A stretch of DNA of 39,184 nucleotides, taken from a virus. Position 1 is the first letter of the stretch; the number at the start of each line of letters is the position of its first letter. Under the pieces are notes generated by a model that worked only from the letters and a program-made list of their open reading frames with translations, was not told where the DNA came from and did not search any database. Position numbers and translations under genes: made by a program. Location: the UHGV virus genome UHGV-1367746; one strand, 5' to 3'. Shown one piece after another: positions 1 through 39,184 of this stretch.

Positions 1-52
1 GTGACTTATGGTTGTGACTTATGGTTGTGACTTATGGTTGTGACTTATGGTT
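1..52. repeat. Tandem array, 4 perfect copies of 13-mer gtgacttatggtt at window start (terminal repeat region)
   Basis: Direct reading: positions 1-13, 14-26, 27-39, 40-52 are identical; same unit repeated at window end. Confidence 0.9.
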
Positions 53-485
53 ATACAGATAGAGACTCAGAGGCAGACCAATAGTCCCTACCTATCGTCT
101 CCACCACCACCGATAGTCATGACCTATCGTTGACTTGAGGTATTTACAGCCGGTCCAACCTTATGATAGACTGGGGTAGGGCCTTGGTCTGGACTTAAAG
201 AGGGCCTATGGGGAGACTTGAGGTTCTTGAACTGTGAGATGTGGTCTCAAACTTTTGGTCCAAAACTCATCGTCCCTCTTAAGGAGCCAGCTACTGTAGG
301 TCAAGGACCGTAGGTCTAAGACCATCGGATGACGACCAGTGAACCAATCAGTAGGTAGACCAGAGGTGAGAGCCTGAATGGTGTTACCTAAAGTCCTTGA
401 CTACAGTAGCTAAGGTCAGTAGAGTGAGTCTTTATCCACTTACTGACCTTAGGTCTTCCGCTCATGAATCGTTACCATGATTGCG

Positions 486-644: not shown

Positions 645-823
645 ATGCTACATACCTCCTGTATCTATGGTCGGTGACTATCTGTATTGGAGGTATTATG
701 ATTAATATCACCTCCTTCCATCGGTGCAAGCCTTAGGTAAGAACTCGGAGTCTGCCTCCTAAGGTCTTGCATAAAGTCTGCATATGTATATTCACTACAG
801 TAATACTATAAGTAACCGGGGGT

Positions 824-846
824 CTTCCCTATAGTGATAGTTAAGT
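824..846 (-). promoter_or_regulatory. Phage RNAP promoter (phiOR-like), +1 at 829
   Basis: Minus-strand sequence CTTAACTATCACTATAGGGAAGA; matches the 11-member promoter family; T7 also has a promoter after gene 19. Confidence 0.75.
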
Positions 847-3564: not shown

Positions 3565-3627
3565 AGTTGCCCTCCCGGTTTATCAGATTTCACGTAGAGT
3601 CGCCTCCACTAGTTAGTGTTAACCATA

Positions 3628-3654
3628 AAGGCCACTACATATAGTAATGACCTT
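3628..3654 (-). promoter_or_regulatory. Conserved RNA hairpin (candidate RNase III processing site, R18.5-like) between small terminase and spanin genes
   Basis: Minus-strand RNA AAGGUCAUUAC-UAUAU-GUAGUGGCCUU forms an 11-bp stem with 2 G.U pairs; member of a 4-copy family with the same stem core. Confidence 0.5.
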
Positions 3655-3665
3655 GAGTCTAACAC

Positions 3666-13457: not shown

Positions 13458-13486
13458 AAAGTCTCCTTATAACCTTAAGGGCCTAT

Positions 13487-13509
13487 AGTCCCTATAGTGA
13501 TAGTTAAGG
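13487..13509 (-). promoter_or_regulatory. Phage RNAP promoter (phi13-like), +1 at 13492
   Basis: Minus-strand CCTTAACTATCACTATAGGGACT; flanked by 12-bp inverted repeat aagggcctatag / ctataggccctt. Confidence 0.75.
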
Positions 13510-18357: not shown

Positions 18358-18459
18358 ATGATAATTCTCCTATTCAATTGAAAGATAAAGTTTATTACTT
18401 ACTGTATGCCCAATCCGTATGGACTGAAGTAATAGGGGAACCTTGAGTCTATCTCTTGG

Positions 18460-18482
18460 TCTCCCTATAGTGATAGTTTAGT
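18460..18482 (-). promoter_or_regulatory. Phage RNAP promoter (phi10-like, capsid gene), +1 at 18465
   Basis: Minus-strand ACTAAACTATCACTATAGGGAGACCA; -7 to +8 identical to T7 phi10 (CACTATAGGGAGACCA); 5' leader can form a stem. Confidence 0.85.
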
Positions 18483-19368: not shown

Positions 19369-19465
19369 TGAGTCATTCTCCTTTAAGTCGTTAATAGGTA
19401 AACACCTACTTGTAGTGTGGGACTAACGGCTACCATATGGTCGGCTTAGTCACTCTTACTTTCGG

Positions 19466-19488
19466 TGTTCCTATAGTGATAGTTTAGG
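19466..19488 (-). promoter_or_regulatory. Phage RNAP promoter (phi9-like), +1 at 19471
   Basis: Minus-strand CCTAAACTATCACTATAGGAACA upstream of scaffold gene. Confidence 0.75.
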
Positions 19489-22225: not shown

Positions 22226-22286
22226 CTTGAATCTCCTCTTTAAGTTAAGACTAAAGTCTATCTTATAGTCATATCTTAGGTCCTAA

Positions 22287-22309
22287 AGTCCCTATAGTGA
22301 TAGTTTAGT
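22287..22309 (-). promoter_or_regulatory. Phage RNAP promoter (phi6.5-like), +1 at 22292
   Basis: Minus-strand CTAAACTATCACTATAGGGACTT. Confidence 0.75.
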
Positions 22310-30680: not shown

Positions 30681-30719
30681 TGGTGTAAATCTCCTAATTT
30701 AAAGTTACGAACTGGACGT

Positions 30720-30742
30720 CTGTCCTACAGTGATAGTTTAGG
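30720..30742 (-). promoter_or_regulatory. Phage RNAP promoter (phi2.5-like), +1 at 30725; single mismatch at -3
   Basis: Minus-strand CCTAAACTATCACTGTAGGACAG upstream of SSB gene. Confidence 0.6.
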
Positions 30743-31668: not shown

Positions 31669-31695
31669 GTCGGCCTCCTTAGGTCGAAGTTATGG

Positions 31696-31718
31696 TTGTC
31701 CTATAGTGATAGCTTAGG
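31696..31718 (-). promoter_or_regulatory. Phage RNAP promoter (phi1.5/1.6-like), +1 at 31701
   Basis: Minus-strand CCTAAGCTATCACTATAGGACAA. Confidence 0.7.
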
Positions 31719-33381: not shown

Positions 33382-33420
33382 TTGTAGCTCCAGTTGTTTA
33401 GGTTATAGGGTTAATCATGA

Positions 33421-33445
33421 AGGCCACGACTTTAAGTCATGACCT
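33421..33445 (-). promoter_or_regulatory. Conserved RNA hairpin (candidate RNase III site, R1.1-like)
   Basis: Minus RNA AGGUCAUGAC-UUAAA-GUCGUGGCCU, 10-bp stem with 2 G.U; immediately downstream of the promoter at 33457. Confidence 0.5.
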
Positions 33446-33451
33446 TGAGTC

Positions 33452-33474
33452 TAATCCTATAGTGATAGTTTAGG
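33452..33474 (-). promoter_or_regulatory. Phage RNAP promoter (phi1.1-like), +1 at 33457
   Basis: Minus-strand CCTAAACTATCACTATAGGATTA. Confidence 0.75.
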
Positions 33475-36771: not shown

Positions 36772-36794
36772 GAGTCCTATAGTGATAGTTAAGT
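36772..36794 (-). promoter_or_regulatory. Phage RNAP promoter located directly upstream of the RNAP gene, +1 at 36777
   Basis: Minus-strand ACTTAACTATCACTATAGGACTC, 75 nt upstream of gene 1 ATG; full match to family core CACTATAGG. Confidence 0.65.
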
Positions 36795-36799
36795 CATAA

Positions 36800-37126
36800 T
36801 TACTTGCATATCAGAGGGTTAGCGTGAAGATGACTGAAGTCACCGTGAGTCGTGTGCTTGATGGTTGACCGTTGGTCTATCGCCTTCCAGCCTGAGACCA
36901 GAAGTTTACCATCGTCGGTGATTGGTCGTCCACCATACGCCAGACACATCAGCTCGGACTTATGGCCCTCTGCCCTGAGTCGTGCCTGTAGTACACGGTC
37001 CCGCTCCTGCTGTTGACGTGCGGTGTGACTTGACGTTCCGTGACGATACCCGGTAGCCAGTAGGCTTAACATGTTCATTTCTGCGTCCATAGAGCGTACC
37101 AAATTAATCCCGTATGACTTGTTCAT
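36800..37126 (-). CDS. Hypothetical early protein (ORFan)
   Basis: 108 aa ORF between ocr and RNAP; start ATG abuts stop of upstream ORF; no recognised homolog (T7 has 0.7 kinase here, which is absent). Confidence 0.6.
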   Translation of the reverse strand: MNKSYGINLVRSMDAEMNMLSLLATGYRHGTSSHTARQQQERDRVLQARLRAEGHKSELMCLAYGGRPITDDGKLLVSGWKAIDQRSTIKHTTHGDFSHLHANPLICK

Positions 37127-37468: not shown

Positions 37469-37611
37469 TCGTTTATCACTCAGTATCCACCTGTCAGCGT
37501 TATGGTCAAGCTATGGTGATTAGCCACGTAGCAAGCCCCGCGCTTCATCATCTCGTAGCACCCATCGTAGAACGCCTGTTCACTGCTATAAGTTATCTGG
37601 TACATTTCTGC

Positions 37612-37845
37612 TTACCCTTGGAATCCTACAGTGTTAGGCCACAGCGTAACGGTCCTACGCTTGGAGGTGATAAGGTCGGTAAATGATATCCGATATGCTG
37701 TGCCCTCAGGTGCTAGTATGTTGCCCTCATAGACCGCTTTCAGGTGGCGCATAGTCGCATCGTGGTTTAACTGCCCGGTCTTGACCATAAGCCGGGCGTT
37801 GGTGACGTGGTGCTGGCAGAGACCATAAGTCACTATCACTCGCAA
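37612..37845 (-). CDS. Hypothetical early protein (ORFan)
   Basis: 77 aa ORF immediately after ocr; start may be internal (overlaps ocr 3' end by 10 nt). Confidence 0.5.
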   Translation of the reverse strand: MRVIVTYGLCQHHVTNARLMVKTGQLNHDATMRHLKAVYEGNILAPEGTAYRISFTDLITSKRRTVTLWPNTVGFQG

Positions 37846-38943: not shown

Positions 38944-39080
38944 AGGTAATTTGAAATAATATTGAGTAAGCTATCGTCGGCCCCATGGTGTAAGAGGATA
39001 TAGTCTTTGACTAACATGTCTTTGACCTTAAGTCTATAGCTGTGTGTCGATTAACTGTAGGCCTTTGACTGTAGGCGTTG

Positions 39081-39184
39081 GTGTCTTATGGTTGTGACTT
39101 ATGGTTGTGACTTATGGTTGTGACTTATGGTTGTGACTTATGGTTGTGACTTATGGTTGTGACTTATGGTTGTGACTTATGGTT
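39081..39184. repeat. Tandem array of 13-mer gtgacttatggtt (7 perfect copies plus 1 variant gtgtcttatggtt) at window end (terminal repeat region)
   Basis: Direct reading 39081-39184; same unit as positions 1-52, so both genome ends carry the array. Confidence 0.9.

Follow-up and report, generated by a model that had tools for sequence, protein, structure and literature searches.

The window analysed here, the whole 39,184-nt stretch of viral DNA deposited as UHGV-1367746, matches Kayfunavirus (Autographiviridae, Studiervirinae; the phage K1F group) at both of its ends, with 91–96% identity. Terminase, close to the start, and RNA polymerase and ocr, towards the end, are all encoded on the minus strand, so that the window is the reverse complement of a conventional T7-type map; the gene-sense strand is accordingly the minus strand throughout. 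Read in gene sense across the two window ends, the features follow one another as a phage promoter (844–823), gene 19.5, two to three CCTACAGT-type short repeats, the terminal repeat (239–61), the motif ATCTGTAT (60–53), a tandem array (AACCATAAGTCAC)n that runs from 52 to 1 and then from 39184 to 39094, the single unit AACCATAAGACAC, two CCTACAGT units (39080–39054), and the early promoters and genes. In this order, 8 bp separate the array from the terminal repeat, on whose inner (left-end) side it lies.

The array itself is split between the ends of the window. Exact counting finds 11 perfect copies of the 13-mer GTGACTTATGGTT, starting at 1, 14, 27 and 40 and from 39094 through 39172, and Tandem Repeats Finder reports a period of 13 at both places (1–52, 4.0 copies, 100% match; 39081–39184, 8.0 copies, 98% match). 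In gene sense, the part proximal to the terminal repeat (1–52, minus strand) holds four perfect AACCATAAGTCAC units, and the part proximal to the early genes (39094–39184, minus strand) holds seven. Next to these, at 39081–39093 (minus strand), stands the one-base variant GTGtCTTATGGTT, or AACCATAAGACAC in gene sense; most relatives (CR44b, BDX03P1, LNA3, MT1B1P3, CHX131, EcoDS1 and others) have it too, conserved as one unit at the end of the variable array. Two degenerate units, GCCTACAGTC and GCCTACAGTT, which carry the commoner core CCTACAGT, end the short-repeat region at 39054–39080 (minus strand). Direct reading, Tandem Repeats Finder and counting thus agree with the sequence-only reading, which had described four copies at 1–52 and eight at 39081–39184, the first of these a 1-nt variant. 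With up to one mismatch allowed, the 13-mer has 13 matches in the window against 0.08 expected from 100 dinucleotide-preserving shuffles. The two blocks are in phase, prefix and suffix of the window being identical at lengths of 13, 26, 39 and 52, and joining them end to end yields the 12 units and 156 bp that had been anticipated. The only other near-copy, an isolated 12/13 match on the opposite strand in the early-gene region (37821–37833), is probably due to chance.

The direct terminal repeat lies at 61–239 (minus strand) as 179 bp of unique sequence in a single, assembly-collapsed copy, recognised by its homology to mapped repeats; it is 94.5% identical to the repeat of SH3, 85.8% to that of CR44b and 85.0% to that of EcoDS1. 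The SH3 repeat (183 bp) had its ends mapped by run-off sequencing of virion DNA, the repeats annotated for Citrobacter phage CR44b and for EcoDS1 measure 183 bp and 178 bp, and that of K1F has been reported as 179 bp. The segment begins with TCTCACAGT, as in T7, and finishes with GAGTCTCT, its edges on the gene-sense strand being the TCTCACAG end and the ...GAGTCTCT end, and its array-side boundary is uncertain by at most 3 nt (58–61). Judged by homology to experimentally defined repeats and by their end motifs, 61–239 qualifies as a terminal repeat and the array does not. Homology to annotated and mapped ends would put the physical ends of this phage at the borders of 61–239. A second copy of 61–239 was not found in the window, where direct repeats of at least 30 nt comprise only the array and the phage promoters. 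Short-read assemblers are known to merge the terminal-repeat copies of T7-like phages, and the single copy indicates that the window is a circularised assembly in which both copies were merged and which was then opened inside the array. Two earlier proposals find no support: in place of a terminus built from a 13-mer there is a unique-sequence repeat, by homology to CR44b, EcoDS1, SH3 and T7, and the window boundaries do not fall inside the direct terminal repeat, since the array starts 8 bp outside it.

Between the terminal repeat and the array sits the junction motif ATCTGTAT (53–60, minus strand; ATACAGAT on the plus strand). CTATCTGTAT is invariant across all relatives fetched by similarity, and the EcoDS1 record annotates a 'concatemeric junction' at the equivalent spot (177–184). 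The motif matches the class II pause signal of T7 RNA polymerase at six of seven positions (ATCTGTA here for ATCTGTT), and T7 carries ATCTGTT at the equivalent position, 161–167. On the non-template strand, ATCTGTT is the class II signal at which T7 RNA polymerase stops 6–8 nt downstream, and a natural copy is present at the T7 concatemer junction. The two systems are alike in having ATCTGT directly after the terminal repeat, on the non-template strand, with a promoter upstream of the right end; they differ in the seventh base, A instead of T, and in the lack of a U-run here, and the likeness concerns 53–60 and not the array. A change at any base of the class II signal reportedly makes it ineffective for T7 RNA polymerase; recognition of the candidate signal ATCTGTAT by the Kayfunavirus polymerase is plausible. 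The pause has reportedly been linked to concatemer processing, in work of Lyakhov, McAllister, Zhang and Studier. The phage RNA-polymerase promoter at 823–844 (minus strand) is identical to an annotated CR44b promoter; in concatemers, transcription from it would pass gene 19.5, the terminal repeat and ATCTGTAT and enter the array. Beyond the far edge of the terminal repeat, and in the same orientation, lie the short repeats GACCTACGGTCC and GACCTACAGTAG (286–325, minus strand), where Tandem Repeats Finder reports two copies with a period of 14 (296–323); with only two to three same-strand cores, they may form a weak counterpart of the right-hand short-repeat region of T7.

Comparison of independent assemblies shows how the array came to occupy both ends of the window. 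Exact-protein look-ups identified the window as the JGI metagenome contig 3300045988|Ga0495776_009939 (39,204 bp) minus its last 20 bases, all of which are array. The JGI contig and the window share their first base; in the contig, the array extends over 52 bases at this end and over 111 perfect bases, followed inward by the variant unit, at the other. An independent MEGAHIT contig from a near-identical phage, k141_199275 (ENA ERZ27272137, 39,300 bp), likewise has both of its ends inside the array, with 40 and 85 bases. On the terminase side its flank is 100% identical to that of the window and the JGI contig over 2.1 kb; on the early-gene side the 1,456 bp adjoining the array are 100% identical and another 2,763 bp are 99.96% identical, bar the swap of one small gene. 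The two assemblies thus end at different array offsets while their unique flanks are 100% identical, and since physical ends would not differ between assemblies, these ends are breakpoints. The suspicion that an assembler had collapsed or broken the genome at the array, leaving the copy number uncertain, is borne out by the collapsed repeat, the 20-nt difference from the JGI contig and the offsets of 52/111 versus 40/85. Simple circular closure with a k-mer overlap was considered and rejected: the maximum possible terminal overlaps are 46 nt (JGI) and 34 nt (ENA), neither a usual k-mer size, which suggests that the contigs were broken and not closed. The 20-nt trimming, which leaves both array blocks exactly in phase, has the look of automated trimming by a circularity or terminal-repeat detector, which took the self-similarity of the array for a minimal overlap of the ends. 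As for copy number, we infer at least nine perfect units; the phase allows 9–12 in the JGI contig, or more if the array was collapsed, and the window as joined has 11.

As in false calls of terminal repeats or circularity in metagenomes, prefix equals suffix here too, because both contig ends lie within one periodic array; what sets this case apart from false circularity calls is that the genome is nevertheless likely to be complete, given its gene order from the early region through terminase and a length that matches those of relatives. The mature genome is predicted to measure ~39.34–39.38 kb, with the second copy of the terminal repeat included. A parallel comes from Sparklingdew, a Kayfunavirus described in 2026, whose SPAdes contig has identical tandem loci of the 15-bp unit AACCTACAGTCCTAC at both ends, with a high-coverage terminal repeat beside one array and a sharp drop in coverage 85 bp beyond the repeat (PMC13298934). 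Its authors conclude that packaging is of the headful (pac) type and that the terminal repeat measures 212 bp (PMC13298934). Given the conserved T7-type end motifs in relatives, and an assembly broken in the 15-bp array, this packaging call may be affected by the array. The small-gene swap that separates the two near-identical assemblies lies after ocr, where a 75-aa gene of the window encodes a Phage_T7_GP04 domain (PF26807; ~37600–37840) and k141_199275 is arranged differently (1456–1581), with a 66-aa gene; this is mosaicism of the early region between near-identical phages.

An array at this position is familiar from T7. In the T7 record the terminal repeat runs to 160, ATCTGTT occupies 161–167, and CCTAAAG-type cores follow from 175 at spacings of 13, 13, 12, 13, 13, 10, 18, 13, 13, 13, 13 and 13 bp, a degenerate array of ~13 CCTAAAG units with a 13-bp period beside the terminal repeat. 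We take this array, next to the left terminal repeat, to be the region named SRL, its counterpart on the other side being SRR; both are said to have been named and originally described by Dunn and Studier in 1983. The literature we searched on SRL/SRR and on the sequence requirements of T7 packaging states no function for these short-repeat regions. The contrast drawn earlier with T7 therefore holds in one half: T7 does have a unique repeat of 160 bp, but a degenerate 13-bp-period array of ~13 units adjoins it.

The array of the window corresponds to SRL in several respects. It lies interior to the left terminal repeat, within ~8 nt of the ATCTGT motif behind that repeat, as in T7, and consists of about a dozen direct repeats spaced ~13 bp apart, with a conserved core of 7–9 nt in one orientation. 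In both phages the array has a 13-bp period and a single orientation and is non-coding and upstream of the early promoters; the number of units is about equal (~13 in T7, 12 + 2 here), and related cores occur inside the terminal repeat as well, the first of them at position 17 in both. The differences are ones of sequence and homogeneity. T7 units are degenerate around CCTAAAG, whereas here at least 11 identical AACCATAAGTCAC copies have been homogenised; the window array breaks short-read assemblies and the T7 array does not; and the putative right-hand counterpart is far weaker here than SRR, with two to three cores. The T7 core CCTAAAG is absent from the window array, whose core is CCATAAGTC (the genus-typical core being CCTACAGTC), so that this is the Kayfunavirus version of the region and not the T7 sequence family; the T7 and Kayfunavirus terminal repeats are themselves only 59% identical. 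The array is thus the Kayfunavirus form of a repeat region known since the T7 genome was sequenced, in an unusually homogeneous, high-copy allele.

Variation at this site across Kayfunavirus was surveyed in deposited phages, IMG/VR contigs and one metagenome contig, an allele being defined as the stretch bounded by CTATCTGTAT and the conserved block that follows it. The survey returned 35 distinct alleles of 83–205 bp, with units of 13–16 bp in 2–9 copies, most of them perfect or near-perfect tandem arrays that differ in their units. The 16-bp unit AACCTACAGTCTCACT is found in KE14 (8.9 copies), MT1B1P3 (7.8) and LNA3 (5.2), a 15-bp unit in ZG49 (7.1) and SH3 (5.2), and a 14-bp unit in EcoDS1 (3.6). 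The 13-mer of the window occurs once each in BDX03P1 and Monomax, twice in CHX131 and three times in the metagenome contig QZMF01000205; in the last two its copies stand directly after ATCTGTAT and are read through internally. No other public sequence among those examined has more than three copies of the 13-mer, and scans for two tandem copies returned no hit in IMG/VR, none in GTDB genomes and one in metagenomes. At 196 bp as joined, the window allele lies inside the length range of the others and has the highest copy number of the alleles surveyed. Across alleles the core reads A-CC-(T/A)-(A/T)-(C/A)-AG-T-C, at a core-to-core spacing of 13–16 bp, and positions left unfixed by the search pattern are 83–85% conserved. 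The locus is hypervariable: no other non-coding site near the genome end varies as much in length within the genus. Compared with other Kayfunavirus arrays, the window array has the same homologous site, core family and flanks (CTATCTGTAT upstream; AACCATAAGACAC and CCTACAGT downstream), with a different unit amplified. Such lineage-specific, homogenised units are what minisatellite slippage or unequal exchange would be expected to produce.

Several functions that a repeated unit might have at this place were considered and rejected. The unit is not a promoter decoy, for the promoter TTAACTATCACTATAGGGAAGA shares only TCAC with the window 13-mer; the 16-bp unit of some relatives shares CTCACTA with the promoter, and that unit is absent from the window. 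Nor is the array a structured RNA, its predicted fold having an energy of −15.4 kcal/mol over 209 nt (z = −1.9), and a search of the whole window against Rfam at the gathering threshold gave no match. A coding repeat is contradicted by stops in every frame on both strands: TAA (sense) or TGA (other strand) occurs in every frame within each 39 nt of array, and no listed open reading frame of at least 40 aa overlaps it. Both ocr and the first sigma-70-like site are located further inward, with the array, itself non-coding, upstream of them. T7-type primases recognise GTC-based sequences, and GTGTC is found on the plus strand of the variant unit only, not in the perfect units.

Taken together, these observations make it very probable that both blocks are one array just inside a 179-bp terminal repeat, the counterpart of SRL, and that assembly broke within it. 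That the array is instead the true direct terminal repeat, or part of it, so that virion DNA would end in 13-mers, would account for the identical array at both window ends, and a collapsed assembly alone does not reveal where terminase cuts. We nevertheless regard it as extremely unlikely: both conserved T7-group end motifs bound 61–239, with its 94.5% identity to the mapped SH3 repeat, the array lies outside this segment and after ATCTGTAT, and relatives with deposited physical ends (CR44b, EcoDS1 and SH3) carry their arrays at the left end only, inside the repeat boundary. The stops of the two assemblies at different array offsets argue in the same direction, as does the high-coverage repeat of Sparklingdew, which lies beside its array and not within it (PMC13298934). 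A different doubt concerns length. The long array could be an artefact of assembly, one to three real units having been extended by looping in a de Bruijn graph; short-read assemblers commonly mis-size tandem repeats, the closest alleles that are spanned have two to three copies of the 13-mer, and the scans of IMG/VR and GTDB genomes yielded no contig with even two tandem copies. Against this, an uninterrupted run of 111 perfect array bases is joined to unique flank in the JGI contig, and the terminal 141-mer of the k = 141 contig takes in the variant unit together with 85 perfect array bases and 43 bases of unique sequence, so that this whole stretch must derive from reads. Relatives, moreover, have perfect arrays of 8–9 units of 16 bp that are spanned internally. 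The 111-base run, the read-derived 141-mer and the arrays of relatives make inflation from one to three units unlikely, and we consider an artefact of this kind very improbable.

Harder to set aside is the view that the array is real and adjoins the terminal repeat, yet has no function, being a neutral minisatellite or spacer in a non-coding leader that expands and contracts by slippage and owes its core to common descent. The free variation of copy number (2–12), unit length (13–16 bp) and total length (83–205 bp) among close relatives fits such a view, as do the stops in all frames, the lack of significant RNA structure (z = −1.9) and the absence of an Rfam match. It accords less well with the persistence of core, orientation and position from Kayfunavirus to T7 although the repeats are 59% identical, with the occurrence of cores within the terminal repeat too, at position 17 in either group, and with the resemblance, lineage by lineage, of the in-repeat core to the array core (CCTAAAG in T7; CCTCAAGT, CCTACAGT and CCATAAGT here). 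On balance we hold the neutral account to be less likely than not, and only slightly less likely than its alternative. The alternative is that a phage DNA-binding factor acts at the packaging junction and has the units (core A-CC-W-W-M-AGTC) as its repeated sites, with copy number only loosely constrained; we entertain it tentatively, at not far below even confidence. It draws on the conserved core and orientation, on the fact that cores flank the terminal repeat on either side and also occur within it, and on the way in which the cores of T7 and Kayfunavirus have changed in parallel. Outside the array, the 900-nt junction zone holds six same-strand cores against ~0.45 expected from the rest of the genome; this strand-specific count, from which the array was excluded, replaced a test for enrichment of ACTKWWGG that was significant and dominated by the array. 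The spacing of 13–16 bp and the range of 2–12 copies argue against a helically phased protein assembly that depends on copy number, and a neutral minisatellite fits them equally well.

Under the favoured reading, of a single array inside the terminal repeat at which assembly broke, the following sequence of events may be proposed. A single type of unit, of which relatives have one or two copies, would have been amplified and homogenised, most probably by replication slippage or unequal exchange. In concatemers, polymerase starting from 823–844 would run across the terminal repeat until it reached the class II-like ATCTGTAT and would pause 6–8 nt after it, inside the first array unit; that the stall would fall there follows from the direction of the promoter at 844–823, which points through the terminal repeat to ATCTGTAT. 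Such a pause could mark the right edge of the terminal repeat for processing by terminase, as has been proposed for T7. During short-read assembly, the two copies of the terminal repeat would have been merged into a circle that was then broken inside the array, and a break there leaves array at both contig ends. We also considered whether the short-repeat regions beside T7-group terminal repeats might be a fast-evolving satellite of binding sites for the packaging or junction machinery, concertedly homogenised, which would reflect co-evolution with a DNA-binding protein and not drift. This is improbable, and were it true, copy number might tune polymerase pausing, terminase recruitment or the DNA end that is ejected first.

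The array is thus ordinary biology combined with an assembly breakpoint, and not an unusual chromosome end. Its locus makes short-read assemblies of Kayfunavirus break beside the real terminal repeat, and the end-to-end identity that results can be taken to show a terminal repeat or a circular genome, leaving true ends and copy numbers wrong in databases; this calls for caution in end-calling and in judging completeness. The variability in length (35 alleles, 83–205 bp) could make the locus a strain marker, and the window allele is a further, cleanly homogenised instance of the short repeats next to terminal repeats of the T7 group, which have long gone unexplained.

Other features of the window were recorded alongside. 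The phage RNA-polymerase promoters form a family with the core CTAAACTATCACTATAGG (CCTATAGTGATAGTT(A/T)AG on the plus strand), all on the minus strand, at 812–845, 13475–13508, 18448–18481, 19454–19487, 22275–22308, 30699–30742, 31684–31717, 33431–33474 and 36776–36822, and these sites supply a transcription map of the genome. A 49-nt direct repeat, 84% identical between its copies at 3614–3662 and 33406–33454, contains the short-repeat-like cores AACCATAAAG and GACCTTGAGTC, and its second copy abuts the promoter at 33431–33474. In the packaging module, a 145-aa open reading frame with an HNH_3 domain (PF13392; 2700–3137, minus strand) lies upstream of the terminase large-subunit gene and overlaps its start; relatives either have an annotated HNH homing endonuclease at this spot or lack one, and the frame looks like a mobile insertion.
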